The notes beneath the pieces are model-generated. The model saw nothing but the letters and a program-made list of their open reading frames with translations. It did no database searches and had not been told where the DNA came from. From Gemmatales bacterium (GTDB lineage: Bacteria > Planctomycetota > Planctomycetia > Gemmatales > HRBIN36), in assembly GCA_041640595.1 (NCBI GenBank), contig JBEPZY010000004.1, positions 98,273 through 162,272 of the forward strand: a stretch of DNA of 64,000 bases. The letters are read 5' to 3'. Made by a program: the position numbers and the translations under genes. This document shows positions 6,060 to 54,332 of this stretch, in pieces (the stretch's first letter is position 1; each line of letters opens with the position of its first letter).

Positions 6060-6258
6060 AGCGATTCGTTGACGGTTATCAGCGGTCGGTGTTGGATGAC
6101 CAGCCACCAGTGGTGGGATTCGCTGAAAATGAGCGAATCCAGGGCGACTGGTGAGCCTGCTGTCGGCCATCCCGAGTCCGCGTAACCTGGCGGGTTCGCA
6201 CACTTTGAAGCCGCCGAGCACGATCTCGTCCGTTTCCGTCAACCATCATCTCCCATTT

Positions 6259-7161: not shown

Positions 7162-8060
7162 GTTGCCGTACCGTGAATTTGCCGATAGAGCATCTCCAAT
7201 CCGACGGGTTCGACGTGAATGTCTTCGACTTCCTGTTGGGCGAGCCAGTTCAGGAGTGGTCGCAAAGATCCACGCACCAGCCAGGTCGACTGGTTACCCT
7301 CCCGACTGAGCAGGTTATCCGGGAACGGGCAGCCGTCCACGACCGGTTTTGCAAAACGTACGCGCACACGGCGACACTGTTGCAGATCGTCGAGATTTTC
7401 CAGAGCTGCAAGTCGCCCGCTTCGCAAAATGGCCACGCGATCGCAAACCGCTTCCACTTCGCTGAGCACATGCGAGGAAAACACAATGGTTCGGCCGGCG
7501 TCGCGCAAGGCCCGCAGCAACTCAAACAGTTCGCCCCGCATCGCCGGGTCGAGGGTATTGGTCGGCTCGTCCAGGATCAGCAGTGAGGTTCGGGAAGCCA
7601 GCACACTTACCAGAGCCAATTTATGTTTCATTCCCGAAGAGAGCGTGCGGATAGGCCGGTCGAGATCGAGGGCGAAGCGTTTTGCCAGGCTTTCGACACT
7701 CCAGGGAGAAGGATCGCCTGCTACTTGCGGGGAAACCGCTGCTCGCAGGCCGCTGAAAAAGTTGAGCAATTCCCGACTGGTCAGATGTTCATAAAGCCGC
7801 AATTCCCCTGGCAAATAAGCCAGACGGCGTCGCACTTCCAGGCTCTGCTTCCAGCAATCGAAACCGCACACACTTGCCGTTCCCGCGGTGGGGCGCAGGA
7901 AGCCAAGCACCAGGCGGACGAAAGTGGTTTTGCCGGAACCGTTCGGCCCGAGCAAACCGACAATTTCGCCCTGGCGGATGCTCAAAGTAAGGTTTTCGAG
8001 CGCCACCACAGCACGGTAATGTTTTGTCAGGTTATGCGTCTGCAAAAGCACCCCGGCCAT
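7158..8060 (-). CDS. ABC transporter ATP-binding protein
   Basis: Walker A GPNGSGKT, signature LSSGM, Walker B LILDEP, SSH switch. Confidence 0.95.
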   Translation of the reverse strand: MAGVLLQTHNLTKHYRAVVALENLTLSIRQGEIVGLLGPNGSGKTTFVRLVLGFLRPTAGTASVCGFDCWKQSLEVRRRLAYLPGELRLYEHLTSRELLNFFSGLRAAVSPQVAGDPSPWSVESLAKRFALDLDRPIRTLSSGMKHKLALVSVLASRTSLLILDEPTNTLDPAMRGELFELLRALRDAGRTIVFSSHVLSEVEAVCDRVAILRSGRLAALENLDDLQQCRRVRVRFAKPVVDGCPFPDNLLSREGNQSTWLVRGSLRPLLNWLAQQEVEDIHVEPVGLEMLYRQIHGTAT

Positions 8061-8217
8061 TTTCGTCCCATAGCTAAATTTCTGGCAAAATCGGGTCAGC
8101 CTCGTGAGATATAATACCGGAAGGAAAACCTTTCAGAGCCGCGGTCGGTAGGACATACCGTTGGCGGTAGCGATTGGGAATTGACGCTGAGCAGGATGGC
8201 TGCAGGAGACCTTCTGC

Positions 8218-10137: not shown

Positions 10138-10239
10138 CCGCGAATTGTTGCGGAAAGTGTAAACGTGTATGACAGCGAGCTGGTTATTCGCTAAAATCAC
10201 CGCCGGCGTCAGGTGGATAACCCAGGGCGGAGGGCAACT

Positions 10240-11115
10240 ATGCAGCGACGCGATTTCTTGCAATGGGGACTTTTCGGAGGAATGACGGCAGCCATTAGCC
10301 AGCTAACTTATGCCGCACCGTCATCTTCTGCCAACGTACCTGCGGCACGGTTTAAGTTGGGAATGGTCACCTACAACATCGCGGCGAAGTGGGACCTGGC
10401 AACGATCCTGCGGGTTTGCCGTAATGTCGGCCTGGCTGCCGTGGAACTGCGCACCACTCACGCCCACGGTGTCGAACCGGACCTACCAGCAGCCAAACGT
10501 GCCGATGTTCGCAAACAATTTGCCGACAGCGGTGTGGTGTTCTGGGGGTGCGGTACGGTCTGCGAGTTTCATTCTCCCGACCCCAGTCAGGTGCGCAAGA
10601 ACATCGAAACTTGCAAAGAGTTTATTGACCTGGTCGCCGACCTGGGCGGCAAAGGCGTGAAGGTACGCCCCAATGCTCTGCCCAAAGAAGTGCCCGTCGA
10701 AAAAACGCTGGCCCAGATCGGCCAGGCCTTACGGGAATGTGGCAAAGCAGCCGCAAACCGGGGCGTGGAAATCTGGCTGGAAGTGCACGGCCCGGGAACT
10801 TCCCACCCTCCGCATGTTCGCACCATCATGGAACATTGCGGACTGGATAACGTCGGCATTACCTGGAACTCCAATCCTACTGACGTCAAAAACGGTTCGG
10901 TCAGCGAGTATTTCGAATTGCTCCGCCCCTGGCTCAAATCCTGCCACATCAACGAACTGTATTCCAGTTACCCCTGGCGAGAACTATTCACGCTGCTCCG
11001 GCAATGTGGTTACGATCGCTACACGCTGGCGGAGATTCCCGGCAGTCCCGATGTGGCCAGCGGCGAGCGATTGCTCCGCTATTACAAAACTCTCTGGCAG
11101 GAACTGATCCGTTAG
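10240..11115 (+). CDS. Tat-exported sugar phosphate isomerase/epimerase (xylose-isomerase-like TIM barrel)
   Basis: MQRRDFLQ twin-arginine signal; VELR, WLEVHG, CHINEL, AEI metal-site pattern. Confidence 0.8.
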   Translation: MQRRDFLQWGLFGGMTAAISQLTYAAPSSSANVPAARFKLGMVTYNIAAKWDLATILRVCRNVGLAAVELRTTHAHGVEPDLPAAKRADVRKQFADSGVVFWGCGTVCEFHSPDPSQVRKNIETCKEFIDLVADLGGKGVKVRPNALPKEVPVEKTLAQIGQALRECGKAAANRGVEIWLEVHGPGTSHPPHVRTIMEHCGLDNVGITWNSNPTDVKNGSVSEYFELLRPWLKSCHINELYSSYPWRELFTLLRQCGYDRYTLAEIPGSPDVASGERLLRYYKTLWQELIR

Positions 11116-11231
11116 CGTCTTAGCCAATCGCCAAGCGAAAGGGCCAGTGCGAACCACCAGTCCTGGCGCCTCACGATTACCATCATCCGCACTTATGGCG
11201 TCCTAAAAAGTGCCGGAAGGAATAGACGATT

Positions 11232-12263
11232 ATGCCTGAAAAGATTCGTGTCGCTATCCTGGGTGCTTCAGGCTATACCGCGCGGGAACTGCTCCTGCTG
11301 CTGTTGCGGCATCCGCATGTCGAAATTGCAGCGGTGACCACACGTCAGGAAGGTAAAGAAGGCACGCCGCTGGTGAGCGAGTTGCATCCGAGTTTGTACG
11401 GTCGGTTAGCGATCCGGTGCGAACCGCTGGATGCCGAGGAATTAGCCCGGAGAGGTGTGCGCTGCGTTTTCGCTTGCCTGCCTCATGGCGTGAGCATGGA
11501 AATCGTGCCAGCACTGTTGCGGCTGGGATTGCGAGTCATTGATCTCAGCGCTGATTACCGTCTCCGCGATCCCCAGATTTACCAGGAGTGGTATGGCGAA
11601 CCCCACCACGATCCCGATCATCTGCGCCTGGCTGTTTACGGGTTGCCGGAAATTTACGGCCCGCAAATCCGCGAGGCGCTGCTGGTGGCCAATCCCGGTT
11701 GCTATCCGCAAACGGTGATTCTCGGTCTGGCCCCGCTCATCGCCCACGACTGGATCGAACGGGAAGACATCATCGCCGATAGCAAAAGTGGCGTTTCCGG
11801 AGCGGGGAGAGCACCTCGCCAGCATACGCATTTCCCCGAATGCAATGAAAGTGTTGCTGCCTACAGTGTGGGCAAACATCGCCACACACCAGAGATGGAA
11901 CAGGTTCTCTCGGACGTAACCTCAGCACCGGTACGCATCATTTTCACCCCGCACCTGGTGCCGATGGACCGCGGTATCTTCAGCACGATATACGTGCGTC
12001 CGCGGCGAGCGGTGTCGGAAGCGGAATTGTTTGAACTTTACCGCGACTATTATGCCCGCGCTCCGTTCGTGCGGATCGTGCCTCACCTTCCCAACTCCAA
12101 GGATACGACCGGCACCAATTTCTGCGACATTACATTACGGCTGGTGCGCGACCGTATTGTTGTGCTGGCCTGCGAGGATAATTTGATTCGCGGCGCCAGT
12201 GGTGTCGCCGTGCAAAATTTCAACCTGATGTTCGGTTTCGAGGAAACCACTGCCTTGCTCTAA
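11232..12263 (+). CDS. argC: N-acetyl-gamma-glutamyl-phosphate reductase
   Basis: GASGYT, IDLSADYRL, ANPGCY, KSGVSGAGR, HRHTPE, DNLIRGASGVAVQNFN. Confidence 0.97.
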   Translation: MPEKIRVAILGASGYTARELLLLLLRHPHVEIAAVTTRQEGKEGTPLVSELHPSLYGRLAIRCEPLDAEELARRGVRCVFACLPHGVSMEIVPALLRLGLRVIDLSADYRLRDPQIYQEWYGEPHHDPDHLRLAVYGLPEIYGPQIREALLVANPGCYPQTVILGLAPLIAHDWIEREDIIADSKSGVSGAGRAPRQHTHFPECNESVAAYSVGKHRHTPEMEQVLSDVTSAPVRIIFTPHLVPMDRGIFSTIYVRPRRAVSEAELFELYRDYYARAPFVRIVPHLPNSKDTTGTNFCDITLRLVRDRIVVLACEDNLIRGASGVAVQNFNLMFGFEETTALL

Positions 12264-12296
12264 CTATAGACCAAGCCGCTCCAAAAGTCGCTGCGG

Positions 12297-13430
12297 TCAC
12301 CGTCGCGGGGGATGCACCATCTGGTTGAACACGCTCGGATCGAACGGATCGGCGGGGGTACTGGCGGACGGCATCGGTTTGTTAGGCAAGCTGATGGGCG
12401 CTCGGTTCGTCGGCAGTACCGTTCCGCTGGCAAAAGGATTGGGCGGCAGGTTGTGGCTGGTCGGTATCGGTAGGCCAGGCGGATTATTCACGACATTGGG
12501 CGAGGCAGATGGCAGACGGGGTACCGTTGTCGGCGCGGACGATGCGGAACCGGTGCTGGTTCGTGCATTGCTGTCAAGGGGCGTAAAACTGTTCGGCAAA
12601 CCAGCCGCTGGCCCAGAGGAGCTGCTTCCGACAATCGCTCCAGGCAAAGCCAGACCGCCAAGGCCTGGCGAACGTACTGGCTTTTCCGTACCGCGGCCAT
12701 TCAGGGTGGGTAAAGGTGCACCGCCTGACCAGGGCAGGGACGAATTGCCGACATTGCCAGGCAGTACGGGAGCAACTGCGGCGGGATTTGTCGGCCCTGG
12801 TGCAAAAACAGGGGCGGGCGAATTGCCCATCGGCACTGCCGGAGCTACCGGGTTCGTGCCGGAGGCGGTTACGCTGACCGGCGGTGAAACACTGGTTTCC
12901 GGGGCAGTCCTGGCCAGATCGTGGCCGTTTGCGTTGGAACCTGTTTTGCCGGCAACTTCGAGCACCCAGTTTTCGAGTGTTCGATAAGCGGCACTATTCG
13001 CACCTGGTAACGGTGGGCGAGTGCTTCCCCCGTGTGGCTGTAAGGCCTGCTGCAATAACGGGCTTTCCCGCGGCTTTTCGAGATTCAAAAGCGGCAGCAC
13101 CTGAGCGAGGTTATGCTCGGTCATCAGCGGAGTCAGTTGACTGAATCGGACAGGCACCCGCAATTCCAAGCCGGGAGCATCAGCACGACCGTGACAGGCC
13201 AGGCTACCGCAGCAGTTGAACAGGATCGGCTGTATGCGGCGAGTGAAAGCCAGTCGGGCTTCATCTGTTAGAAGCGGTTGTGCTGGCTGAGCATGCAGAC
13301 TGTCGGCCGTCAGCAACATGGCCAGCACATAGACCGTGGCCCAGCCGAATTTCCACCTACCTGGCACTGCATTCCTCCCATCGTACGGCAGTGATGGATC
13401 GAATATGGTTACAGTTCCGGCAGGGTGCAC
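12297..13430 (-). CDS. Secreted hypothetical protein with planctomycete cytochrome-c-like N-terminal domain and Pro/Ser-rich tail
   Basis: Hydrophobic signal-like segment, FTRRIQPILFNCCGSLACHG, SPLL...PHGG...TLENWV, then low-complexity tail ending DPFDPSVFN; start uncertain. Confidence 0.6.
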   Translation of the reverse strand: MHPAGTVTIFDPSLPYDGRNAVPGRWKFGWATVYVLAMLLTADSLHAQPAQPLLTDEARLAFTRRIQPILFNCCGSLACHGRADAPGLELRVPVRFSQLTPLMTEHNLAQVLPLLNLEKPRESPLLQQALQPHGGSTRPPLPGANSAAYRTLENWVLEVAGKTGSNANGHDLARTAPETSVSPPVSVTASGTNPVAPAVPMGNSPAPVFAPGPTNPAAVAPVLPGNVGNSSLPWSGGAPLPTLNGRGTEKPVRSPGLGGLALPGAIVGSSSSGPAAGLPNSFTPLDSNARTSTGSASSAPTTVPRLPSASPNVVNNPPGLPIPTSHNLPPNPFASGTVLPTNRAPISLPNKPMPSASTPADPFDPSVFNQMVHPPRR

Positions 13431-42015: not shown

Positions 42016-42813
42016 ATGTTAGCTGAGGAAAGGCGACAAAAATTACTGGAATACGTAAGAGAGCGAGGATTCGTCAGGCTTAGCGAACTCATTGAGGAGC
42101 TAGGCTGCTCAGAATCCACAATTCGCCGCGATCTGGATTACTGGCACAATCTGGGAATCATCAAGCGAACCCATGGCGGTGCGGTGTATGCTCAGCATGA
42201 CACCATGCCCGCTCTCGACGACCGCACCACCGCCATGCTCGCCGAGAAGCAGCAGATCGCCCGCACGGTGGCGTCGTGGATCACGCCGGGCGAGACGGTC
42301 TTGCTCGACGGCGGAACGACTACTTTAGAGGTCGCAAAAGCGCTTCTTGGCAAACGCCTCAACGTCGTCACCAACAGTTTGCCAGTGGCTCAGCTTTACG
42401 CCAGCCGACCGGAAGTGGATCTGATCCTGTTGGGCGGCTATGTCTTCCCGCGAACCGGTGTGGCTCTGGGGCCGATCACCGTCAAGATGCTCCAGGATAT
42501 TCACGTTCACATTGCCATTCTCAGTGTCGGCGGGATGACAGCGAAGGGCCTGTTCAACAGCAACCTGCTCCTGGTCGAGACGGAGCGGCAAATGTTACGC
42601 TCGGCGGATCAGGTGATCATTGTGGCCGACCACAGCAAAATCGGGAGACAGGCGGTCGCTTTTCTCTGCGATTGGTCGGCCGTGGATGTGCTGGTGGTGG
42701 ATGCGGGACTGTCGCCGGAACAGCGTCAGTTGCTGGAACGGGCCAAAGTGCGCTACGTCCTGGCCGGTGCAGATTCGCCAGCACCGCCTGTGCGGGTGGA
42801 GGCCAGCGCATGA
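42016..42813 (+). CDS. DeoR/GlpR family transcriptional regulator of the BMC locus
   Basis: [38 protein letters not shown]. Confidence 0.95.
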
Positions 42814-43487
42814 GCCAGACTATTTCCTCTATTGCCGACCGCAATCGTATCGAAAAGCTGGTGCGGCAAACTTTGCGGAAGTATCTGACTGCAGCCGAGC
42901 CGACGGATGGTTACCGCCCAAAACTGGTCGTCAATATCTCAGCTCGGCATGTGCATCTGCGGCCGGAATCAGTGGAGCGACTGTTCGGGCCAGGGGCCAA
43001 ACTCACACCAATGCGCCCGCTTTATCAGGAAGGGGAATTCGCGGCCGAGCAAACCGTGACCATCATCGGTCCGCGACAACGCATGATCACCAACGTGCGC
43101 GTGCTGGGTCCGTGTCGGGATTACGACCAGGTGGAGCTGGCGTTTACCGACGGCATTCTGCTGGGCATTGATTTGCCGGTGCGGCGTAGCGGTGATCATC
43201 GCGATACGCCGGGCTGCTGGTTGATGGGCCCGGCGGGAATGATTCGTCTGGAGCAGGGCGTGATCCGTGCCGAACGCCATGTCCACATGTCGCCGCGCGA
43301 CGCCGCCTATTACGGCGTGCAACACGGGGATCGGCTCAAGCTGCGTGTCGTCAGCCGCTGCCCCACGGTTCTGGAAGGGCTGCTTTGTCGCGTGGATGAG
43401 CGCTACAAGCTCGAAGTCCACCTGGACACCGACGAGGGCAACGCCTGCGACTTGCCATCCGCCACCTATGTCGAGCTTTTCAAATAA
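42810..43487 (+). CDS. pduL: PduL-type phosphotransacylase (BMC)
   Basis: [51 protein letters not shown]-coupled to DeoR. Confidence 0.93.
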
Positions 43488-43491
43488 CCTG

Positions 43492-43514
43492 ACTGCCAGT
43501 GCGAAACTGGCAGT
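43492..43514 (+). other. Stem-loop directly after pduL (attenuator or mRNA-stabilising hairpin)
   Basis: ACTGCCAGT-GCGAA-ACTGGCAGT, perfect 9-bp stem, no U-tract. Confidence 0.55.
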
Positions 43515-43627
43515 GACTGCCTGGTGTCAATGGCGAATTAGCATTGCCAGAATCATCCTGGCGACTGACATAGCCATGACAATTTGCGATAGAGCAACTC
43601 GGCAAACTATCTAAAAGGAGGAGTGCC

Positions 43628-43942
43628 ATGCCGAACCATCCCGGAGTCGAAGCCCTGGGAATGATCGAGACCAAGGGGCTGGTGGCCCTGATCGAGGCCT
43701 GCGATGCCATGCTCAAGGCGGCCAATGTGGAACTGATCGGCTGGCAGAAGATCGGTTCCGGTTTTGTGACTGCCTTTGTGCGGGGCGATGTGGCTGCGGT
43801 CAAAGCTGCCGTGGATGCCGGTGCTGCCGCGGCTCAGAAAGTCGGCGAGGTCATCAGCACGCAGGTCATTCCTCGACCGCATACCGAAGTGGACACGGTT
43901 CTGCCACAAGCGGCCCGCAAGGAAACCGTCGCCGTCAGCTAA
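43628..43942 (+). CDS. BMC hexamer shell protein (BMC-H)
   Basis: ALGMIETKG...DAMLKAANV...IGSG...[10 protein letters not shown]...VIPRPH; RBS AAAGGAGGAG. Confidence 0.97.
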
Positions 43943-44068
43943 ACGCCAGCCGCTAAATTTGGCTTGCGTTCTTTCGGCGACCAGCGCGTCGGACCGCATG
44001 CGACCTGAACAGGCGAAAGCAATTTGTGCCAAGCAAACTCTCCAATATCGCAAAAAGGAGGAACGCTT

Positions 44069-44362
44069 ATGGCCAGCAACAATTTCTTCAACGGCCCGGC
44101 TCTGGGGCTGATCGAGACCAAGGGGCTGATTGCCACCATTGCTGCTACCGATGCGATGCTGAAGGCGGCCAACGTGACCCTGGCCGGTCAGGTGCAGATC
44201 GGCGGTGCCTACGTCACGACCCTGGTGCGTGGCGATGTCGGTTCAGTGCGTGCCGCGGTTGAAGCCGGGGCTCAGGCAGCACAGGCCAATGGCGAACTGG
44301 TCAGTGCCCACATCATTCCCCGCCCCGAACAGGCCGTCCTGGATGCTTTCCTCAGCAAATGA
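44069..44362 (+). CDS. BMC hexamer shell protein (BMC-H)
   Basis: ALGLIETKG...DAMLKAANV...IGGA...RGDVGSVRAA...HIIPRP; RBS AAAGGAGG. Confidence 0.97.
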   Translation: MASNNFFNGPALGLIETKGLIATIAATDAMLKAANVTLAGQVQIGGAYVTTLVRGDVGSVRAAVEAGAQAAQANGELVSAHIIPRPEQAVLDAFLSK

Positions 44363-44377
44363 CCAGGGAGCCTGGCC

Positions 44378-45580
<1,203 letters not shown>

Positions 45581-45590
45581 GAGAAGGAGC

Positions 45591-45911
45591 ATGTTCCTGG
45601 CTCGTGTGACCGGCAACGTCGTGGCCACGCAAAAAGTCGCCAATCTGACCGGCCGCAAGCTGCTGCTGGTCGAACCCATGCGCCTCGAACCGGGCACGCA
45701 TCGCCAGCTGATTGGCACGGGCCGAACCTTCGTTTGCGTGGATACCGTCGGCGCCGGGCTGGGCGAGCTTGTCCTTATTGTTCAGGGTTCCAGCGCCCGC
45801 ATGACTCCCGACTGCGAAAAGCTTCCCGTGGACGCTTCCATCATCGGCATTGTGGACCGCGTCGTCGTCCACGGCGAGACCATTTTCGCCTCCGGCACGG
45901 GAACTTCCTGA
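45591..45911 (+). CDS. BMC pentamer vertex protein (EutN/CcmL)
   Basis: MFLARVTGNVVATQK...DTVGAGLGELVL..QGSSAR...DASIIGIVD. Confidence 0.95.
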   Translation: MFLARVTGNVVATQKVANLTGRKLLLVEPMRLEPGTHRQLIGTGRTFVCVDTVGAGLGELVLIVQGSSARMTPDCEKLPVDASIIGIVDRVVVHGETIFASGTGTS

Positions 45912-46018
45912 GCAATCCGATCCCAGCTTGCGGAGACATATTCAGTCTGTGACAACCCGATGACAACGCACTGCCCATTCATGGACACACTGCGATCACC
46001 ATCTGGCGAGGACCTGCC

Positions 46019-47476
46019 ATGACCCTGCGGATTACCGATGCGATTATCAGCCGTGTCGTTCAGGAAGTGCTGGCGGAATTGCGTCAGGGCTCGGCGCCGA
46101 CGCCTGTTGCCGCCAGTGCTCCGCCGTCTGCGAATGGCCAGGTTCGTCCTGGCCGATGGGGCGTGTTCGAGCGCGTGGACGACGCCGTCGCTGCTGCGTC
46201 CGAAGCGCAGAAACGCTTTGCCCGACTCGGACCGACCGGCTGGGCCAAAGCTGTCCAGTGCATCCGACGCATCTGCATCGATCAGGCCGAGCCACTCGGA
46301 CGCGAAGAGTACGAGGAAACCAAAATCGGTCGCCTCGACCACAAAATCGAGAAACTGATCGTCGCAGGCGAGCGCACGCCCGGCGTCGAATGGCTGCTCA
46401 CCCATGCTTATAGCGGAGCTGACGGCGTCGCCCTGGTCGAATACGCGCCCTTCGGCGTCATCGGCGCCATCACGCCAGTCACCCATTCCCTGCCGACGCT
46501 GGCTTCCAACGCCATCTCCATGCTCGCCGCTGGGAACGCCGTCGTCTTCAATCCCCACCCGGCCGGCGCTGGAGTAGCCCGGCACGGTGTGCAGCTTTTC
46601 AATCAGGCTATCGAACAGGCCATCGGCATTGACAACCTGCTGACACTGGTCGCGGAACCCACTCTCGAAACCGCTCAGGCGATCTTTGAACATCCCGACA
46701 TCCAGTTGCTCTGCGTCACCGGTGGTGCTGCGGTGGCCCGCGCTGCCTTACGCAGTCCCAAACGCGCTATCGTTGCCGGGCCGGGAAACCCGCCGGTTGT
46801 CGTGGACGAAACCGCCGATCTTGCCAACGCCGCTCGCTCGATTATCCGCGGGGCCGCTTATGATAATAACCTGCTCTGTATCGGCGAAAAGGAAGTTTTT
46901 GCCGTCGCCTCCATATTCGACGAACTGTTAGAGGAAATGGAAAAGGCCGGGGCAATTCGCTTAGATACTAAACAAATCGAGGCCCTGACTCAGGTAGCCT
47001 TCACCACCAATCAGGATAAATCCAGGTATGTTCTCAATAAAGACTTAGTCGGCAAAGACCCGGAAGTGCTGGCAGCAAAGGCGGGATTCCAGCTACCGAG
47101 AAAGACCGAACTCCTCTTCGGCGAGACCCCGCCCGATCATCCTTTTGTATTAGAGGAGCAGATGATGCCGTTTGTTCCTTTTGTCAGGTGTCGGGATTTT
47201 TATGAGGCGGTCGAACACGCCAAACGTGCCGAACACGGTTTCCGCCACACCGCCATTATCCATTCCCGGAATGTCGAGGCGATTACTTATATGGCTCGGG
47301 AACTAAATACCACCTTATTTATTGCCAATGGCCCATGCGTGGCGGGATTAGGTATCGGCGGCGAAGGTTATCTTAGCTATAGCATCGCCACACCAACCGG
47401 CGAAGGGGTAACCACTCCGCTTACCTTCACCCGCCAGCGGAGACTCACCATGACCGGAAGCCTCCGCATTATTTAG
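46019..47476 (+). CDS. Acylating aldehyde dehydrogenase (EutE/PduP-like, BMC)
   Basis: PFGVIGAITPVTH, GNAVVFNPHP, VTGG, AGPGNPP, DNNLLCIGEKE, ATPTGEG; N-terminal amphipathic helix. Confidence 0.95.
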   Translation: MTLRITDAIISRVVQEVLAELRQGSAPTPVAASAPPSANGQVRPGRWGVFERVDDAVAAASEAQKRFARLGPTGWAKAVQCIRRICIDQAEPLGREEYEETKIGRLDHKIEKLIVAGERTPGVEWLLTHAYSGADGVALVEYAPFGVIGAITPVTHSLPTLASNAISMLAAGNAVVFNPHPAGAGVARHGVQLFNQAIEQAIGIDNLLTLVAEPTLETAQAIFEHPDIQLLCVTGGAAVARAALRSPKRAIVAGPGNPPVVVDETADLANAARSIIRGAAYDNNLLCIGEKEVFAVASIFDELLEEMEKAGAIRLDTKQIEALTQVAFTTNQDKSRYVLNKDLVGKDPEVLAAKAGFQLPRKTELLFGETPPDHPFVLEEQMMPFVPFVRCRDFYEAVEHAKRAEHGFRHTAIIHSRNVEAITYMARELNTTLFIANGPCVAGLGIGGEGYLSYSIATPTGEGVTTPLTFTRQRRLTMTGSLRII

Positions 47477-47487
47477 GAGGTAAAGCC

Positions 47488-47742
47488 ATGCAACTGGCAC
47501 GCATCGTCGGCCATGCGGTCACCAATACCTATCATCCCAGCCTGCGAGGCTGGCGGTTATTAGTCGCCCAGCCGCTGGATGCCACCCATCGGCCCGATGG
47601 CGAGCCGCTCCTGGTTATTGACCATTTCGGAGCCAGTATAGGTTCTATAGTCATCCTGAGTAACGATGGCCAGGGAGCCCGCGAACTGGTCGGCGATAAT
47701 AAGTCGCCCGTCCGCTGGTTTGTGCTGGGCATGAAAGATTAG
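47488..47742 (+). CDS. BMC pentamer vertex protein (EutN/CcmL)
   Basis: MQLARIVG...LLVAQPL...IDHFGASIGSIVIL. Confidence 0.9.
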   Translation: MQLARIVGHAVTNTYHPSLRGWRLLVAQPLDATHRPDGEPLLVIDHFGASIGSIVILSNDGQGARELVGDNKSPVRWFVLGMKD

Positions 47743-47752
47743 AGGCTTCACC

Positions 47753-48061
47753 ATGCGCATCGCTCAGGTGATCGGCAGCATCACCCTCTCTCGGCCGCAT
47801 CCAGCGCTGGTCGGAGCGCGATTGTTAGTGGCTGTTCCGTCCAGTCTGCAAGCACTGGCTCAACACCGCGGGGCCGACGGTGAGGAAATCATTGTCTGGG
47901 ACGATCTCGGAGCCGGGCCGGGGTCCTGGATCGGTGTCAGCGAAGGGGTCGAGGCGACCATGCCCTTCCGCCCCGAACGAAAACCTATTGATGCCTATTG
48001 TGCCTGCCTCCTGGATGACCTCCATCTCGATACTCAGCAAATCAAGGAGTTAATATCATGA
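47753..48061 (+). CDS. BMC pentamer vertex protein (EutN/CcmL)
   Basis: MRIAQVIG...DDLGAGPG...SEGVEA...PIDAY. Confidence 0.9.
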   Translation: MRIAQVIGSITLSRPHPALVGARLLVAVPSSLQALAQHRGADGEEIIVWDDLGAGPGSWIGVSEGVEATMPFRPERKPIDAYCACLLDDLHLDTQQIKELIS

Positions 48062-48930
48062 ACGAACGCGCCATCAAGGAGCAAATATGCGAAATTGGCC
48101 GACGCCTGTATCAGCGGGGCTATGTTTCGGCGAACGATGGCAATATTAGTGTTCGTCTCAATGAGCGCGAAATTCTCTGCACGCCTACGATGATCTCTAA
48201 AGGTTTCATGAAGCCGGAAGATATATGCAAGGTGGACTACGAAGGGAATCAACTGGCCGGCACTCGGAAACGCACCAGCGAAATTTTCCTCCATCTGGCT
48301 GTTTATAAGCATCGTCCGGACGTTATGGCCGTCGTCCATTCGCATCCACCCCATGCAACGGCCTTTGCTGTCGCTCACGAACCGATCCCGAAATGTATCC
48401 TGCCGGAAGTCGAGGTCTTTATTGGGGAAGTGCCGATTGCGAAATACGAAACGCCCGGCGGCCAGGCGTTCGCCAATACCGTCGTGCCGTTTCTCCAGGG
48501 TACCAACACTATCTTATTAGCCAATCACGGAACGGTAACATTCGGGCCGGACTTGGAAAAAGCCTACTGGAACACGGAAATTATAGATTCCTATTGCAAG
48601 ATATTGATTCTGGCTCGCCAGCTGGGCCGGGTCAACTATATTTCCGACGAAAAAACCCGCGAATTGCTGGCACTCAAGCAACGCCTCGGTTACGACGATC
48701 CGCGTTTGCACTGTGCTGGGTGTCCGGTCTGCGGGCCGGGATTGTTGATTCAGCAGGAAGGCGACTATATTCCCGAACCGTATGCCTTTCGCCGCGATAT
48801 CGGTGCGACCTGCGGCCCGTGTGCAGCCAACGGCCAGCAAGAAACCGACATGGCAGAGTTCAGCCAGCTGGAAAACTTAGTGCAGCGCATTACTGCCGAG
48901 ATTTGCCAGAAACTGGGAATCAAGACCTAG
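48058..48930 (+). CDS. Class II aldolase (fuculose/rhamnulose-1-phosphate aldolase-like BMC signature enzyme)
   Basis: DGNISVR, TPT, TSEIFLH, VVHSHP, LANHG; C-terminal helix LENLVQRITAEICQKL. Confidence 0.92.
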   Translation: MNERAIKEQICEIGRRLYQRGYVSANDGNISVRLNEREILCTPTMISKGFMKPEDICKVDYEGNQLAGTRKRTSEIFLHLAVYKHRPDVMAVVHSHPPHATAFAVAHEPIPKCILPEVEVFIGEVPIAKYETPGGQAFANTVVPFLQGTNTILLANHGTVTFGPDLEKAYWNTEIIDSYCKILILARQLGRVNYISDEKTRELLALKQRLGYDDPRLHCAGCPVCGPGLLIQQEGDYIPEPYAFRRDIGATCGPCAANGQQETDMAEFSQLENLVQRITAEICQKLGIKT

Positions 48931-48961
48931 ATCACCTGGCCAGAAATACAGGAGCGGGAGC

Positions 48962-50056
48962 ATGAAGGTAAGCATCATCGGTGGCGGAGGTGTGGTGGGG
49001 AGCACCGCGGCTTTTGCCTTGCAATGCGGCGGCGTGGTCAGCGAAATTTGCCTGATTGACGCTAATAAGGAACTGGCACTCGGTCAGGCCGGCGATCTTT
49101 TACACGGTTCCAGCCTCGTAGCTGATCAGCGTATTTATGTCGGCGATCTCGAAGAAATTCGCACCAGCCACCTGGTTATTATTACCGCCGGTTTACGTCG
49201 CAAGCCCGACGAAAGCCGATTGGATCTCATCAACCGCAATGTGGATTTGTTTCTCAACATCATCCAGCAGGCTAAGCAAATCGGTTGGCGCGACCACGCC
49301 GTCTTGCTGGTGGTCAGCAATCCCGTGGACATTCTCACCTACTTAGCAGTGCGTCATTCAGGGCTACCTGCTTCGCGGATCATGGGCTTGGGGACACTTC
49401 TGGATACCGCTCGATTTCGTAGCTATATAGCCGACCATCTTAAGGTGCCGGCGACGCAAGTGGACGGATGGATACTAGGTGAACATGGCGATAGTATGGT
49501 GCCGGTCTGGTCAAGTGTGCGGATTAGCGGCTGGCCTGTGCAGCAGTGGCCCGGCTATAGTCCGCAATTCGAACGGGAAATCGAAGAGCAGACCCGCAAA
49601 GCCGGTGCGGAAATGATTCGTTTGAAGGGAGCCTCTGCCTTTGCCGTGGCACTAAGTATCCGGGAGGTGGTTCACGCTGTATTCTTAGATCAACGCCGAC
49701 TGCTACCGGTCTCGACATGGCAGGAAGGAAAGTACGGCGTGCAGGGGATATGTTTCTCTGTGCCGACTATCGTTGGTTGCGGAGGTGTGCGCGGGCAGAT
49801 GGAGCTTCCGCTCACACCGCGAGAACAGGCCGCTCTGCTTCAGTCGGCCAAGGTGCTTGCCGAGACTATACGTCAGGTTGAAAACCGTCTAAGCACCACC
49901 AGCCCATCCGCCGGACAGACAGCGCAGCGGGCGGAAACTAAGTCGGCTGACTCCCGACAGACTATAGCCAGGTTGGAGCCGAGCAGTATGCCTGCGGGGC
50001 ATAATCAGCAAGGGCAACGGGTAATTCCGCGATCGGCCTGGCAGCTTGCCCGCTAA
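48962..50056 (+). CDS. Lactate/malate dehydrogenase family protein (BMC locus)
   Basis: IIGGGGVVG, TAGLRRKPDESRLDL, VSNPVD, GTLLDTARF, GEHGDS; about 55-aa C-terminal extension. Confidence 0.92.
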   Translation: MKVSIIGGGGVVGSTAAFALQCGGVVSEICLIDANKELALGQAGDLLHGSSLVADQRIYVGDLEEIRTSHLVIITAGLRRKPDESRLDLINRNVDLFLNIIQQAKQIGWRDHAVLLVVSNPVDILTYLAVRHSGLPASRIMGLGTLLDTARFRSYIADHLKVPATQVDGWILGEHGDSMVPVWSSVRISGWPVQQWPGYSPQFEREIEEQTRKAGAEMIRLKGASAFAVALSIREVVHAVFLDQRRLLPVSTWQEGKYGVQGICFSVPTIVGCGGVRGQMELPLTPREQAALLQSAKVLAETIRQVENRLSTTSPSAGQTAQRAETKSADSRQTIARLEPSSMPAGHNQQGQRVIPRSAWQLAR

Positions 50057-50080
50057 GGTACACAGCAACATGTCACTGCC

Positions 50081-51355
50081 ATGGTAGCGAAATCCTTAGA
50101 TATTAAGCTGGCCCGTATCCACGCCGATCCGCACGGGGCACGGGACTTTATATTAGCGGATGCCAAGGACGCCGATATGGCCTTCGGTATCGGTGCCCCG
50201 GGGCGATCGCCGGAGAACTATAGCGGGGAGGTACGCTTTCGCAGTCTGGCAGAATGGCGGGATATTATTACCGAAATCGTGGAACAGGGGCTGGTGGACA
50301 TAATGTTAATGTCGGCCAGCACCAGTGAGGTGCTGACCATTCAGCGGCGGATTTTTGACCGTAGTTCGGTGACGCCTGCGGTGCGGGTCAATGATACCAC
50401 GGACATCTATATTGTGCGAGGCGGTAAGTATCATACCTATCCGTCCCTGCCATTTCGCTCGGCTACGCTGGATCATATCCAGTGCGGCCACCTCGATTGC
50501 CAGCCCGGGGAGCGTTATTTAGGTGCGAATTTAGGTCTATACAGCATCACCTTTAACAACGATCCGGTACTGGACAGGGAGGCGCTCGAGCAGTATAAGG
50601 AGTTTCGCCTCGAAGCCGAGCGTAAAGGTTTTCGGCATTTCCTGGAAGTGTTCGACCCGAATCGTCCGGAAGCTGTAGAAGAAAGCCGTATTCCGGAGTT
50701 TGTCAATGATATGATCGTGCGCAGTTTAGCAGGTGTAACATCCAGAGGTCGGCCGCTGTTTCTGAAAATTGTTTATCACGGCCCCAAGGCGATGGAAGAA
50801 TTAGTGCGTTATGATCCTCACCTGATAGTTGGCATTCTCGGTGGCTCGGCGGGTACCACTTATGATGCGTTCAAATTATTAGCGGAGGCTAAGAAACACG
50901 GAGCCCGGGTGGCTTTGTTTGGCCGCAAAATTAATAATGCGGAAAATCAGTTAGCGTTTATCAGATTCCTTCGGCTCATTGCTGATGATGAAATCAGTCC
51001 GGAAGAGGCGGTGCGTGCCTATCATGGAGTATTGCAGCGGCTGGGTATTCGCCCGCAACGGAGTTTAGAGGAGGACATGCAGCTTACTACGAATATCATG
51101 AGTTATGGCGGCAGTGGACGAACGATTAGTTTGCCGCCGCGAGTAGCCGCAGGTGCGAATGCTAAGCCAGCCGGCTGCCGATGTCCGCAGTGTCCGTGTC
51201 AGCGTCAGCGAGGCGAATCGGGAAATGACACGCGCTCTAATAATCCGGGGCGCCTAGCGGATACGACAGGGACAGGCGAGCCGGACTTTCGTACCATGAC
51301 GGCTGCGGAAAAAGTCGCCTACAATCTAGCCAAATGGCGGCGAATTCTTGGCTAA
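50081..51355 (+). CDS. Conserved hypothetical protein, probable class I aldolase-like TIM barrel
   Basis: 424-aa ORF 24 bp after the LDH gene; ordered motifs FLEVF, FLKIVY, GILGG, LFGRKI resemble LacD/DhnA-type aldolases (fold is inferred). Confidence 0.7.
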   Translation: MVAKSLDIKLARIHADPHGARDFILADAKDADMAFGIGAPGRSPENYSGEVRFRSLAEWRDIITEIVEQGLVDIMLMSASTSEVLTIQRRIFDRSSVTPAVRVNDTTDIYIVRGGKYHTYPSLPFRSATLDHIQCGHLDCQPGERYLGANLGLYSITFNNDPVLDREALEQYKEFRLEAERKGFRHFLEVFDPNRPEAVEESRIPEFVNDMIVRSLAGVTSRGRPLFLKIVYHGPKAMEELVRYDPHLIVGILGGSAGTTYDAFKLLAEAKKHGARVALFGRKINNAENQLAFIRFLRLIADDEISPEEAVRAYHGVLQRLGIRPQRSLEEDMQLTTNIMSYGGSGRTISLPPRVAAGANAKPAGCRCPQCPCQRQRGESGNDTRSNNPGRLADTTGTGEPDFRTMTAAEKVAYNLAKWRRILG

Positions 51356-51447
51356 AGATACAGCCACAAAACGCCGCGCCTGGTGTACTAAACACAGGAC
51401 GGTGAACTATCTAACCATGCAGGGCCGAGGAAGCGGCAACGGAGGGC

Positions 51448-52449
51448 GTGAAAATGGAGGCAGCCTATTATACGAACCCTGGCGGGCCAGAGGTAATTCA
51501 ATATGGGGAACTGCCCGATCCGGAACCGAGAGAAGGGGAAGTGCTGGTCAAGGTACTGGCGGCATCTTTGAATCCGATAGATACCTATATTCGGGCGGGC
51601 ACGGTATCTATGCCCCGCCCCAGTCCCTATATTCCTGGCTGCGACCTGGCCGGCATCGTTATCAAACTCGGTGCTGGGGTGAAACGGTTTCGTGTCGGCG
51701 ATCGGGTTTGGGGAAGCAATCAAGGTCTAATGGGCCGGCAGGGCACTTTTGCCGAATATGCGGCGGTGCACGAGGACTGGCTCTATCCGATTCCCGACGG
51801 TGTGTCGGAGCAGGAAGCGGCGGCGGTGGCGTTAGTGGGAATTACAGCGCATTTGGGACTGTTTCGGTGTGCGAAATTGCAAGCCGGGGAAATTGTGTTC
51901 GTCAATGGCGGTACGGGCGGCGTCGGTTCGATGGTAGTGCAGATGGCCAAAGCGATTGGCGCGAAAGTTATTACCACGGTCGGTTCCGAGGAAAAGGCTC
52001 AGTTATGTCGGCAATGGGGAGTGGACTTAGTGCTGAACTACAAGACCGACGACGTGCCGGCGAAAATCAAGGAGTTTAGTGGTGCGGGCGTGCATGTCTG
52101 GTTTGAGACGCAGCGCGAACCGGACTACGATCGCATGGTCGAGCTGACGCGGCTGCGTGGACGATTAGTGGTGATTGCGGGTCGGCAAGCCCGGCCACCG
52201 TTTCCGCATGGGCCGTTCTATGTCAAGGACCTGACGTTATACGGTTACGCGATGTTCAATGCGACGCCGGAAGAGCAACGTCGGTGCGCTGAGGATATAA
52301 ATCGCTGGCTGGCTGAGAAGAAATTGCACGTGCCCATCGGTCGCGTATTCACATTTTCTCAGGCTGCCGAGGCGCATCGCCTGCAGGAAGAAAATACGCT
52401 GCACCGTGCCGGTACACTTACAGGTAAAATTGTGCTGGTGCCGGACTAA
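51448..52449 (+). CDS. NADPH:quinone reductase-like MDR oxidoreductase (zinc-free)
   Basis: GGPEVI, LNPID, PGCDLAG, GTFAEY, GGTGGVG, GKIVL. Confidence 0.92.
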   Translation: MKMEAAYYTNPGGPEVIQYGELPDPEPREGEVLVKVLAASLNPIDTYIRAGTVSMPRPSPYIPGCDLAGIVIKLGAGVKRFRVGDRVWGSNQGLMGRQGTFAEYAAVHEDWLYPIPDGVSEQEAAAVALVGITAHLGLFRCAKLQAGEIVFVNGGTGGVGSMVVQMAKAIGAKVITTVGSEEKAQLCRQWGVDLVLNYKTDDVPAKIKEFSGAGVHVWFETQREPDYDRMVELTRLRGRLVVIAGRQARPPFPHGPFYVKDLTLYGYAMFNATPEEQRRCAEDINRWLAEKKLHVPIGRVFTFSQAAEAHRLQEENTLHRAGTLTGKIVLVPD

Positions 52450-52473
52450 GTAATCCGGGGGGGTTCGATCAGC

Positions 52474-53379
52474 TTAGAAGGCGGGGATGAGATAAAGATC
52501 ATAGCGACCGTTACGTTCGGAAACAATGACTAAGTTTCGGCCATCGGGAAACCACCAGGGATAATCATCGCGGCCAGGATTGTTGGTGATGCGGCGAGGT
52601 TCGGAACCATCCGCTTTCATCACGTAGATTTCATAGTTACCGTCGCGATTGCTGGTGAAGGCGATATATCGTCCGTCCGGGGACCAGACGGGACGGATAT
52701 CCATTCCGGGCGAGTGTGTCAGTCGGCGAACATTAGAACCGCTGGCATCCATAACATAGATCTCGTAATCACCATCGCGAGTGGAAGAAAAGACAATGTG
52801 CTTGCCGTCGGGAGAGAAGCGAGGCCAGTTGTTGATGCCGGCCGTATTAGTGAGGAACTGGCGGTTTTGACCTTGCAGGTTGACATAGGCAATCTGCTGA
52901 CCAGTGGCGGTGGGGATACTAAATAGCACACGACTTAGATCGGGACTAATAGCCGGGCTGCGCATGCCGGCAAAACCGCCGCCGGGATCATAAATATAGT
53001 CGCGCTTTTCCTGATAGTCGCGGATGACGAGTTTGAGATTGAGATTAGCCCGGTTCTGGACGAAAGCGGCGTAACGGGCGTCCGGTGAAAAGGCGATCTC
53101 GAATTCGTTGGTATTCGCTTCGGGATGCAAGCGTTCCGATTGGCCGGTATTTAGACGTAAGCGCCAGAGACTAAGCAACGTGGGGGTTTCCTGCAAGGTA
53201 TAGACGATTTCCTGGCCGCCAGGCAGCACGACAGGATCGGCTTTCCATCGGCCATCGAAAGTAAGCTGTTTTTCCGCGGTGGCGGGCTGAGCGGTGGCTC
53301 CAGGCCAGAGCGTGGTTGTGAGCATGAGTGCCAGGCAAGCGACTGGGGCAGCAGCTTCGAGGTACCAGCAAGATTTCAT
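52474..53379 (-). CDS. Secreted TolB-like PD40 beta-propeller protein
   Basis: Signal peptide, repeated P.(F/W)SPDG..I.F.S.RDG.YEIYVM. Confidence 0.9.
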   Translation of the reverse strand: MKSCWYLEAAAPVACLALMLTTTLWPGATAQPATAEKQLTFDGRWKADPVVLPGGQEIVYTLQETPTLLSLWRLRLNTGQSERLHPEANTNEFEIAFSPDARYAAFVQNRANLNLKLVIRDYQEKRDYIYDPGGGFAGMRSPAISPDLSRVLFSIPTATGQQIAYVNLQGQNRQFLTNTAGINNWPRFSPDGKHIVFSSTRDGDYEIYVMDASGSNVRRLTHSPGMDIRPVWSPDGRYIAFTSNRDGNYEIYVMKADGSEPRRITNNPGRDDYPWWFPDGRNLVIVSERNGRYDLYLIPAF

Positions 53380-54332
53380 GGGAGTTCCTCCGTAGCGTTG
53401 GAAGGAGAAGCAGGCGGTTGAAGGAAAGCAAGGAGCTGGGCGGCGCCGCGTTCCAGTAAGCGAAGGGCGAGTTGTTCGCCGATGGCAGCGGCTTGCGGCG
53501 CGGTAGCGGTTTCGGTGTCTTCGAGAGCGACGCTACCGTCGGGAGCCAGGATCAGGCCGTGCAGAGTCAGATAAGGTCCGGAAACGGTGGCGTGAGCGGC
53601 GATGGGCACCTGACAACCGCCGCCAAGCCGGCGCAGGAAAGCGCGTTCGGCGGTGATAGCTAGCCAGCTGGCCGGGTCATTGATCCGCCTGACCAGAGCC
53701 AGGGTAGCGGTGTCGTCGGCACGACATTCGACGGCGACGGCACCCTGTCCGACGGCGGGAAGCCAGGATGCGATGTCCAGGCGTTGGGTAATGCGGGAAG
53801 CGAGGTTCAATCGTGCCAGGCCGGCTTCGGCCAGGATCAGACCGTCGAGGTTTTCGGCTTCGAGTTTGCGGAGGCGGGTTTCGACATTGCCGCGGATGGG
53901 CACGATTTCCAGGTCGGGTCGGCAACGTCGGAGCAGGGCCTGGCGACGCAAACTGGCGGTAGCGATGCGGCCACCGGCAGGCACGGCCGACAACGAGGCG
54001 TAGCGGTGCGAGACGAAGACATCGTGAACCGGGCCCCGGGGCGGAACGGCGGCCAGGAGCAGACCGGGAATCGGTTGCGTGGGCAAATCTTTACAGCTAT
54101 GCACGGCCAGGTCCACCTCGCCGCGCAAAAGTGCCTGCTGGATTTCGCGGGTGAAGACGCCACGTCCGCCGATCTGCGCCAGCGGGGCATCGCGGAGCAC
54201 ATCGCCGGTGGTGCGAACGATGACGAGTTCGACCGGGCGGGGAGCGACCAGCGGGCGGAGCATTTCGGCGACCAGTTCGGCCTGCTGCCGCGCCAGAAGG
54301 CTGCCGCGAGTCCCCAGACGCAAAGGTTGCAT
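53376..54332 (-). CDS. hemC: Hydroxymethylbilane synthase (porphobilinogen deaminase)
   Basis: GTRGSLLA, TTGD, AVHSCKD, SLRR, RGNVETR, PAVGQG, GGCQVPI. Confidence 0.96.
   Translation of the reverse strand: MQPLRLGTRGSLLARQQAELVAEMLRPLVAPRPVELVIVRTTGDVLRDAPLAQIGGRGVFTREIQQALLRGEVDLAVHSCKDLPTQPIPGLLLAAVPPRGPVHDVFVSHRYASLSAVPAGGRIATASLRRQALLRRCRPDLEIVPIRGNVETRLRKLEAENLDGLILAEAGLARLNLASRITQRLDIASWLPAVGQGAVAVECRADDTATLALVRRINDPASWLAITAERAFLRRLGGGCQVPIAAHATVSGPYLTLHGLILAPDGSVALEDTETATAPQAAAIGEQLALRLLERGAAQLLAFLQPPASPSNATEELP

Follow-up and report, generated by a model that had tools for sequence, protein, structure and literature searches.

A C-terminally tailed, DhnA-like protein as a candidate second signature enzyme of PVM-type bacterial microcompartments

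The window analysed here is a stretch of 64,000 nucleotides from a Gemmatales bacterium (contig JBEPZY010000004.1, positions 98,273 to 162,272), in which a PVM-type bacterial microcompartment (BMC) operon is followed by an open reading frame (ORF) for a protein of 424 amino acids, referred to below as the target. We consider it rather probable that the target is an encapsulated ketose-phosphate aldolase, which acts as an accessory second signature enzyme of the PVM organelle. The fold of the target, its conservation, its gene linkage and the distribution of its C-terminal tail are what the analysis establishes, and from these we infer catalysis, substrate and encapsulation. An original prediction, made from the DNA letters, had proposed a class I aldolase-like enzyme that extends the BMC operon, with the quinone oxidoreductase (QOR)-like product of the next gene as its partner. 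The aldolase fold, the tie to the PVM locus, the tail and a second signature enzyme as the best reading are retained here; the partnership with the QOR-like protein is not. The target can be divided into three parts:

50081-51100, + strand: core, residues 1-340, a TIM barrel of the class I aldolase fold, with the codon for K229 at 50765-50767 (AlphaFold2, Foldseek, VIA, conservation)
51101-51277, + strand: disordered linker, residues 341-399, containing CRCPQCPC (AlphaFold2, predicted local distance difference test score (pLDDT) 33-46)
51278-51355, + strand: C-terminal tail, residues 400-424 (EPDFRTMTAAEKVAYNLAKWRRILG), and stop codon, a candidate encapsulation peptide (AlphaFold2 helix, motif distribution)

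The target ORF (50081-51355, + strand, ATG start) is a real gene, as is evident from the large number of its homologues. A word-indexed protein search returned at least 8000 relatives at E<=1e-3, and a search of the full library yielded 1211 clusters (50% identity) at E<=1e-3 and 270 at E<=1e-30. The 120 matches listed are 71-99% identical to the target; nearly every named one bears the label 'hypothetical protein', and three carry an automatic DhnA-family aldolase name, which in JGI records reads 'DhnA family fructose-bisphosphate aldolase class Ia'. Among the NCBIfam models, residues 169-315 gave weak matches to ADH synthase (E 3.7e-4), archaeal class I fructose-bisphosphate (FBP) aldolase (3e-3) and LsrF (0.028), all of which lie below threshold (at most 19.9 bits, with cut-offs above 240), and a phmmer search of the target against the PDB sequences returned a chance-level match to a lactate dehydrogenase (LDH) alone (E 1.1). 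The alignment profile A2 matches LsrF among the PDB sequences with an E value of 2.2e-4, and an hhalign comparison with E. coli LsrF gave an E value of 4.5e-5, with the GG and GR motifs aligned.

The AlphaFold2 model of the target, built on a 32-sequence alignment, has a mean pLDDT of 79.5 and a predicted template modelling score of 0.75, and the pLDDT is mostly above 90 in the barrel. Eight strands alternate with helices (residues 24-29, 74-77, 98-102, 151-157, 185-191, 228-230, 250-253 and 277-280), which is the (beta/alpha)8 barrel of the DhnA/LacD-type class I aldolases. All matches listed by Foldseek are class I aldolase folds of the DhnA/LacD group (E 1.8e-10 to 9e-8), among them LsrF, the Thermoproteus tenax FBP aldolase, the ADH synthase MJ0400, LacD, YihT and a sulfohexulose-1-phosphate aldolase. 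With VIA-align, members of this group gave Z scores of 23.1-20.6 over 240-258 residues at a root-mean-square deviation (rmsd) of 2.7-3.8: 2qji came first (Z 23.1, 254 residues aligned, rmsd 3.0), followed by LsrF (22.7), T. tenax FBP aldolase (22.6), LacD (21.5) and YihT (about 21), and classical class I FBP aldolases scored about 19. The ESM Atlas returned unnamed clusters or clusters automatically named 'FBP aldolase' (0.97), and clusters of DUF2090 and Cgl0159 at 0.78-0.79, which we treat as leads only. The structure prediction and comparison with class I aldolases that had been suggested as a check thus gave a TIM barrel with DhnA/LacD-type proteins as its top PDB matches. Judged from this model, the target is a TIM-barrel enzyme of about 335 residues, distantly related to the DhnA/LsrF/LacD-type class I aldolases.

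The motifs that had first been read from the sequence were likewise found in the order given. The motifs FLEVF (187-191), FLKIVY (227-232), GILGG (251-255) and LFGRKI (279-284) sit on strands 5 to 8 of the barrel and their loops, where they provide E189, K229, GG254-255 and GR281-282; further downstream follow CRCPQCPC (366-373) and the terminal segment AAEKVAYNLAKWRRILG (408-424). We aligned 76 tailed and 77 tail-less relatives, after removal of ORFs that were cut by contig ends, contained X or were 500 or more amino acids long. All 153 sequences agree at ten residues, D27, D30, D73, R102, N104, E189, K229, G254, G281 and R282, while D105 is found in 152 of 153, as is K29 (76/76 tailed, 76/77 tail-less). 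Candidates for catalysis and phosphate binding are D27, K29, E189, K229, GG254-255 and GR281-282. GILGG (251-255) and FGRKI (280-284) align with the phosphate-loop motifs IAGG and MGRNI of LsrF in both HMMER and hhalign. K229 lies within the sixth strand of the model (228-230; block pLDDT 94), flanked by hydrophobic residues, and is separated from the GG motif by 25 residues, compared with 23 between K203 and GG in LsrF. We take K203 to be the catalytic position in LsrF because the 4p2v chain has an alanine there and because the column is invariant in LsrF, FbaB, YihT and a metagenomic PF01791 protein. Based on strand order, spacing and invariance, K229 is the probable Schiff-base lysine of the target.

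In the window, the target follows a complete PVM-type operon of the fucose/rhamnose type (42016-50056, + strand; its genes are listed further below). The TAA stop codon of the LDH-like gene (50054-50056) leaves a gap of 24 bp before the target ORF on the same strand, as had been described. To see how general this arrangement is, relatives were collected in a scan with one genome per species, which found them in at least 576 of 600 matched stretches, and the best 80 loci were analysed. These are nearly all labelled as Planctomycetota (Gemmataceae, Pirellulales, Planctomycetaceae, Isosphaeraceae, Phycisphaerae and Thermoguttaceae), and one as Sumerlaeota. Sixty of the 80 loci are linked: the target is located on the same strand as the PVM operon and directly after the LDH gene (41), the class II aldolase gene (16) or the third BMC-P gene (3). 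Thirteen are unlinked and seven have too little upstream sequence to judge. No recurrent neighbour family was found around 11 unlinked tailed copies, and shell genes were present elsewhere in all ten genomes with an unlinked target that were tested. The survey of gene neighbourhoods that had been proposed ties the gene to PVM loci in these 60 of 80 cases. Of 301 genomes drawn evenly from the phylum, 15 gave a match to the target and 107 a match to shell genes, with 14 of the 15 positive for both; these counts are descriptive, as related genomes are not independent.

Two of the linked loci deserve separate mention. In L041 (labelled Phycisphaerae) and L075 (labelled Planctomycetales), the operon lacks a class II aldolase gene and the target comes right after the third BMC-P gene, at the position normally taken by the class II aldolase gene. 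The L041 genome, a metagenome-assembled genome (MAG) of unreported completeness, has no PF00596 match at all, and the L075 genome has a single class II aldolase, encoded elsewhere and without a C-terminal extension. In L041, the target is located between the BMC-P gene and genes for a PduS-like protein and a tandem-domain BMC-T protein, that is, inside the shell-gene cluster. These loci without a class II aldolase speak most strongly for a role of the protein in supplying the organelle with aldehyde. The L041 stretch (3888-13163) has a PVM-like gene order in which the LDH-like gene is absent along with the class II aldolase gene and in which a PduS-like flavoprotein gene follows the target, and it may represent a distinct BMC subtype.

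The second line of evidence is the tail. In the AlphaFold2 model, residues 341-398 are disordered and a terminal helix spans residues 408-423, in agreement with the Cys-containing linker and terminal helix that had been predicted, and the helix turned out to be a conserved tail specific to the family. The linker varies in length among relatives (15-475 amino acids, median 47) and contains at least four Cys residues in 24 of 73 cases. The tail peptide (consensus xPDFakMTpAEKLAYHraRlxRIlG) is present in 77 of the 77 complete ORFs of the 80 loci, the other three being cut by contig ends, and its motif is exclusive to target ORFs, with 72 of 72 matches in the 80 loci and the only match in the target's own genome. 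The helical hydrophobic moment of the tail is 0.40, compared with 0.39-0.52 for the terminal helices of the aldehyde dehydrogenase, PduL and class II aldolase of the locus, and its net charge of +3 sets it apart from these other terminal helices. The tailed ORFs form one clade with a support of 0.917 in a midpoint-rooted FastTree tree, in which intermediate forms are under-sampled, since the tailed and tail-less sets are the best matches to two different queries. Tail-less relatives are 324-339 amino acids long.

Encapsulation peptides, including the Cys-rich linkers on the PVM class II aldolase, have been described previously, with 5.5% Cys in the aldolase linkers (Table 2 of PMC4594438). They are defined there as extensions that are found on BMC-associated proteins and absent from non-BMC homologs, and as a helix joined through a disordered linker (Aussignargues 2015, PMC4594438). 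The target family shows the same distribution, with the tail in 77 of 77 complete ORFs and tail-less relatives in loci without shell genes, and the target has the same layout, with its helix at 408-423, the disordered stretch and the moment of 0.40. By analogy, the tail looks like an encapsulation peptide. Cys-rich linkers precede the terminal helices of both aldolases encoded in the window, with CAGCPVC and CGPC in the class II aldolase (within 48688-48930) and CRCPQCPC in the target (51176-51199); these linkers may bind metal or be sensitive to redox conditions.

The tail-less parent family gives a first indication of the chemistry. A metagenome scan seeded by tail-less members gave a best set of 80 loci, none of which contains shell genes; a simple ORF caller kept the aldolase-like ORF in 59 of them. 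A PfkB kinase is encoded within three ORFs in 39 of these 59 loci, as the next ORF downstream in 36, and on the same strand in 29 of the 36. Of nine loci with ORFs listed, four (L082:7992-10036, L084:7965-10012, L143:7986-9973 and L120:7944-10984) show a 4-bp overlap of the kinase ORF with the end of the aldolase-like ORF, and in two cluster representatives, P0125 and P0195 (727 and 674 amino acids), the aldolase-like domain is fused to PfkB. Also within three ORFs, an FGGY kinase and a PF07385 D-lyxose/D-mannose isomerase were each found in 13 of the 59 loci. Judged by score, the FGGY neighbours resemble xylulokinase or glycerol kinase, and no NCBIfam model matches the partner PfkB kinases at E<=1e-20. 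Further neighbours include sugar ATP-binding cassette transporters, ROK regulators, RbsD/FucU, an AGE-family D-mannose isomerase and 2-hydroxyacid dehydrogenases. Because of the kinase, isomerase and transporter neighbours and the PfkB fusions, we assign the family to ketose-phosphate catabolism, and these surroundings support a pathway order of isomerase, kinase and aldolase. The PfkB-coupled tail-less members look like part of an undescribed ketose-phosphate pathway, and no account of the tail-less family turned up in the literature searched.

Based on these results, the following model can be put forward. One clade of the family, mostly within the Planctomycetota, would have gained a variable and often Cys-rich linker together with the conserved amphipathic C-terminal helix, and in this tailed clade the gene would have become the last conserved gene of PVM-type operons. 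Guided by its tail, the enzyme would enter the organelle, where K229 of strand 6 would form a Schiff base with a ketose phosphate and the loops with GG (254-255) and GR (281-282) would hold the phosphate of this substrate. Its cleavage would yield dihydroxyacetone phosphate (DHAP) and a short aldehyde, either lactaldehyde or a close analogue such as glycolaldehyde or glyceraldehyde, which could then pass to the aldehyde dehydrogenase, PduL, acyl kinase and LDH-like enzyme inside the organelle. The enzyme would work beside the class II aldolase and be the sole signature enzyme in a few lineages.

A wider reading that joins all of these strands is possible, and we offer it tentatively. The tailed DhnA-like enzyme might constitute a second signature module of PVM metabolosomes, based on a class I aldolase and admitting a ketose phosphate outside the range of the class II aldolase; as the sole signature enzyme in some MAGs labelled Phycisphaerae or Planctomycetales (L041, L075), it might mark an unrecognised functional BMC subtype. 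The PDFxxMTxxEKLAYH tail might then be a new sequence class of encapsulation peptide, and the tail-less parent family, whose members are coupled, or even fused, to an unclassified PfkB kinase near D-mannose/D-lyxose isomerases, might mark an undescribed route of ketose-phosphate catabolism.

Several observations weigh against an encapsulated aldolase. With respect to the family, the target has no Pfam match at E<=0.01 and is not recognised by the DeoC/LacD model PF01791; a PF01791 search of its own genome at E<=10 matched three other places, two of them above the family cut-off, and left the target undetected. An hhalign comparison of A2 with a four-sequence DhnA alignment (LsrF, FbaB, YihT and the metagenomic PF01791 protein) reached a probability of 7.5% and covered strands 7-8 only. 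With respect to catalysis, HMMER and hhalign set K229 one residue ahead of K203 of LsrF, and in three divergent tail-bearing cluster representatives (P0188, P0201 and P0227; 33-36% identity by BLASTP) T, Q or F replaces K229, so that these proteins may be inactive or work differently. The neighbours of the tail-less members point to no particular substrate, and the target's own genome lacks a PfkB of the partner type, the best candidate (C9) being about 29% identical to the partner kinases. This PfkB and a xylulokinase-like FGGY kinase (C4:243.7 kb) were considered as partners in the own genome and dismissed, as both are located among unrelated genes. With respect to encapsulation, the tail is more basic and far more conserved in sequence than typical encapsulation peptides and could serve an interaction other than encapsulation. 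Finally, just 14 of the 107 genomes with shell genes have the target, and 13 of 13 retested shell-positive, target-negative genomes remained negative with the family profile, which matched two positive controls. The target is thus an accessory, non-universal PVM component, and the organelle works without it.

Some of these points would also fit a true sugar-phosphate aldolase that shares its transcript with the BMC genes yet stays in the cytosol, where its substrate could be, for instance, a bisphosphate or DHAP released from the organelle, and that uses its tail for oligomerisation or regulation. DhnA-type relatives are large oligomers, and the conservation of the tail and its net charge of +3, unlike the other terminal helices of the locus, would suit such a role, as would the frequent separation of the target from shell genes (in 13 of the 80 loci and, in addition, in G043, G156, G239, G300, G118 and G285). 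However, the tail occurs only where the locus or the genome has shell genes (60 linked loci and 10 of 10 unlinked ones tested), no shell genes accompany any of the 80 tail-less loci, and in L041 the target is placed inside the shell-gene cluster. Linker and terminal helix moreover fit the encapsulation-peptide definition published for the PVM class II aldolase (PMC4594438). We therefore regard a cytosolic aldolase as unlikely.

A different chemistry has to be weighed because of the resemblance to LsrF. The target could be an LsrF-like, coenzyme A (CoA)-dependent thiolase or acyl-transferase that converts a diketo- or keto-sugar phosphate and CoA to DHAP and an acyl-CoA, the latter serving PduL and the acyl kinase; the BMC does contain a CoA-recycling module. 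LsrF ranks first in Foldseek and in the comparison of the profile with the PDB sequences and is less than one Z unit below the top VIA-align match, but its score does not stand apart from those of true aldolases (Z 22.7 compared with 23.1 and 22.6). Similarly, FGGY kinases, the family of LsrK, are found near 13 of the 59 tail-less loci, but they score as xylulokinase or glycerol kinase and not as an autoinducer-2 kinase, the dominant partner is PfkB, and no LsrG-like isomerase was seen among the neighbours. This makes a thiolase quite improbable.

We give still less credence to a non-catalytic scaffold or pseudo-enzyme that organises cargo. Such a role would account for the three divergent tail-bearing representatives without K229, whereas the residues proposed for catalysis and phosphate binding do not vary among the 76 tailed ORFs aligned and tail-less relatives are found beside kinases in sugar-catabolic operons.

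In the encapsulated-aldolase reading that we prefer, the gene behind the target has no part. It was indeed found, as predicted, to encode a member of the medium-chain dehydrogenase/reductase (MDR) superfamily on the + strand (Pfam ADH_N and ADH_zinc_N); its score for the PIG3 subfamily model TIGR02824, the nearest one, is 212.1 bits and below the cut-off of 296.8. The ORF (51448-52449) has a GTG start, with an alternative ATG at 51454 preceded by GGAGG, and begins 92 bp past the target. As had been noted, no + strand terminator-like site was found by consensus scan in the gap at either end of the target (50057-50080 and 51356-51447); the sole site in those gaps lies at 51397-51374 on the - strand. 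The same kind of scan placed a promoter-like site at 51296-51325, ahead of the QOR-like gene. Across the 80 loci, a QOR-like gene is next to the target once, on the opposite strand, and no downstream gene is conserved: among the three ORFs that follow the target in 68 loci, the largest recurring cluster reaches 3 loci. The QOR-like protein has no terminal extension. The QOR-like enzyme had been suggested as a partner on the ground that no iron-type alcohol dehydrogenase (Fe-ADH) is present; this argument is dispensable, as the NAD+-recycling alcohol-dehydrogenase role in PVM loci is already assigned to the gene of the LDH/malate dehydrogenase (MDH) family (Axen 2014, PMC4207490). A two-gene module in which the QOR-like enzyme reduces the aldehyde or recycles a cofactor is therefore scarcely credible and the weakest of the alternatives: in its favour are the shared strand, the 92-bp distance and the lack of a + strand terminator-like site, and against it the single adjacency in 80 loci on the opposite strand, a downstream recurrence of at most 3 in 68 loci, the missing extension, the promoter-like site and the LDH-like gene as predicted recycling dehydrogenase (PMC4207490). 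We accordingly treat the QOR-like gene as an unrelated neighbour of the PVM operon.

The operon itself corresponds to the published PVM locus, which comprises a class II aldolase, an aldehyde dehydrogenase, PduL, an acetate kinase, an LDH/MDH-family dehydrogenase, a DeoR regulator, two BMC-H genes and a triplet of BMC-P genes (Axen 2014, PMC4207490; Sutter 2021, PMC8217296, supplementary files 4 and 6). All of these parts were detected with Pfam and NCBIfam, in order, within 42016-50056 on the + strand:

42016-42813, + strand: DeoR-family regulator, first gene of the PVM locus (Pfam HTH_DeoR and DeoRC, E 2.4e-45)
42810-43487, + strand: PduL-type phosphotransacylase (PvmB-like) with an N-terminal amphipathic stretch (NCBIfam PRK15070, 232.8 bits, cut-off 209)
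43628-43942 and 44024-44362, + strand: two BMC-H shell genes (Pfam BMC PF00936, E 1.9e-30 and 6.4e-27)
44378-45580, + strand: acetate/acyl kinase (PvmG-like; Pfam Acetate_kinase, E 2.9e-101)
45591-45911, + strand: BMC-P pentamer gene 1 (Pfam EutN_CcmL, E 5e-29)
46019-47476, + strand: aldehyde dehydrogenase (PvmJ-like) with an N-terminal encapsulation-peptide-like helix (Pfam Aldedh, E 3.5e-31)
47488-47742 and 47753-48061, + strand: BMC-P pentamer genes 2 and 3 (Pfam EutN_CcmL, E 1.1e-20 and 4.4e-18)
48058-48930, + strand: class II aldolase (PvmN-like, 290 amino acids) with a Cys-rich linker and a C-terminal amphipathic helix (Pfam Aldolase_II, E 4.3e-52, residues 8-183)
48962-50056, + strand: LDH/MDH-family dehydrogenase (PvmO-like, 364 amino acids) with a C-terminal extension of about 55 amino acids (Pfam Ldh_1_N and Ldh_1_C; TIGR01771, 294 bits, cut-off 303.55)
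51448-52449, + strand, downstream of the operon and the target: PIG3/QOR-like MDR oxidoreductase, a non-conserved neighbour (Pfam, NCBIfam)

The genes upstream of the DeoR gene are unrelated housekeeping genes on the opposite strand. The C-terminal extension of the LDH-like protein (49892-50056) lies beyond the Ldh_1_C domain, which ends near residue 308 of 364; the extension is rich in Ser, Thr, Gln and Arg and has no clear amphipathic helix. An ORF of 115 amino acids (43267-43614) overlaps the 3' end of the PduL gene and nearly reaches the first BMC-H gene; matched by neither Pfam nor NCBIfam, this ORF is possibly spurious. DNA nearly identical to positions 47400-53400 of the window is present in hot-spring and microbial-mat metagenomes from 16 studies, and the source organism appears to be a thermophilic relative of the Gemmatales. 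In the metatranscriptomic library X9, a contig of 221 nucleotides spans the junction between the LDH-like gene and the target, and no contig connects the target to the QOR-like gene. The depth in this library is even over the whole 6-kb stretch, including convergent genes, so that DNA carry-over is possible and the reads do not establish co-transcription of the LDH-like gene and the target. The target's own genome (42 contigs, 95.5% complete) has no match to RhaA (PF06134) or to the C-terminal domain of FucI (PF02952). The route that feeds its PVM organelle is thus a non-textbook one or uses other types of isomerase; since such types exist, the missing matches give no firm indication of the substrate.

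The PVM organelle is among the few experimentally characterised metabolosomes and figures prominently in those planctomycetes and verrucomicrobia that break down polysaccharides of algae and plants. Only one aldehyde producer is found among the enzymes accepted for it, PvmB, G, J, N and O. A second, tailed aldolase would, if the proposal holds, give the organelle a wider sugar range, account for PVM loci without a class II aldolase and provide a ready, sequence-conserved targeting peptide for engineering. The PVM proteins listed in the main text, the text of Supplementary Data 2 and the HMM table of Sutter 2021 are PvmB, D, E, G, H, J, K, L, M, N and O only (PMC8217296). In the literature searched, no class I or DhnA-like aldolase is described in PVM loci, although an earlier depiction without a label in catalogue drawings is possible.

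The closest structural relatives of the target are the DhnA-type enzymes (E. coli LsrF, M. jannaschii MJ0400, T. tenax FBP aldolase and E. coli FbaB; PF01791, COG1830). They share with it the TIM barrel, at Z scores of 22-23 over about 250 residues, and the GG and GR motifs, which align with those of LsrF, and the target has an invariant Lys on the sixth strand. However, the target is only 11-18% identical to them and has no PF01791 match, and in sequence alignments its lysine is offset by one residue from K203 of LsrF. Its core of about 335 amino acids is also larger than theirs (250-290), with extra segments after strands 1 and 3, and the C-terminal linker, the tail and the BMC linkage are found only in its family.

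LacD, a tagatose-1,6-bisphosphate aldolase, and YihT, a sulfofructose-1-phosphate aldolase, have the same fold as the target (Z 21-21.5, identity 12-15%). Both are paired with a PfkB kinase, LacC and YihV, respectively, which resembles the arrangement in 39 of 59 tail-less loci, and in L120 an AGE-family isomerase adjoins the pair in the way that YihS adjoins YihT and YihV. In contrast, the partner kinases of the target family match no NCBIfam model at E<=1e-20. For the parent family as a whole (1211 clusters at 50% identity), neither a Pfam model nor a characterised member was found, and given its tight coupling to an unclassified PfkB kinase, the family is an obvious place to look for new enzymes and pathways.

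With the class II aldolase PvmN, the target shares the operon, the layout of core, variable Cys-containing linker and C-terminal amphipathic helix, and the expected products, DHAP and an aldehyde. PvmN is also the precedent for an aldolase that bears an encapsulation peptide at its C-terminus. The two differ in that PvmN is a metal-dependent class II enzyme and the target would be a class I enzyme that works through a Schiff base; their folds and tail sequences are unrelated, and the target is an accessory component (14 of 107 genomes with shell genes). A class I aldolase fold in an aldehyde-generating signature enzyme does have precedents in other BMCs. DERA (PF01791) has this position in SPU-type BMCs (Dwyer 2024, PMC11585597), to which, among BMCs, it is restricted according to that account, and PF01791 enzymes with encapsulation-peptide-like extensions are encoded near HO-type BMCs (Sutter 2021, PMC8217296). 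These enzymes belong to the DeoC subfamily and to other BMC types, and they differ from the target in the terminus or in the kind of extension they carry.

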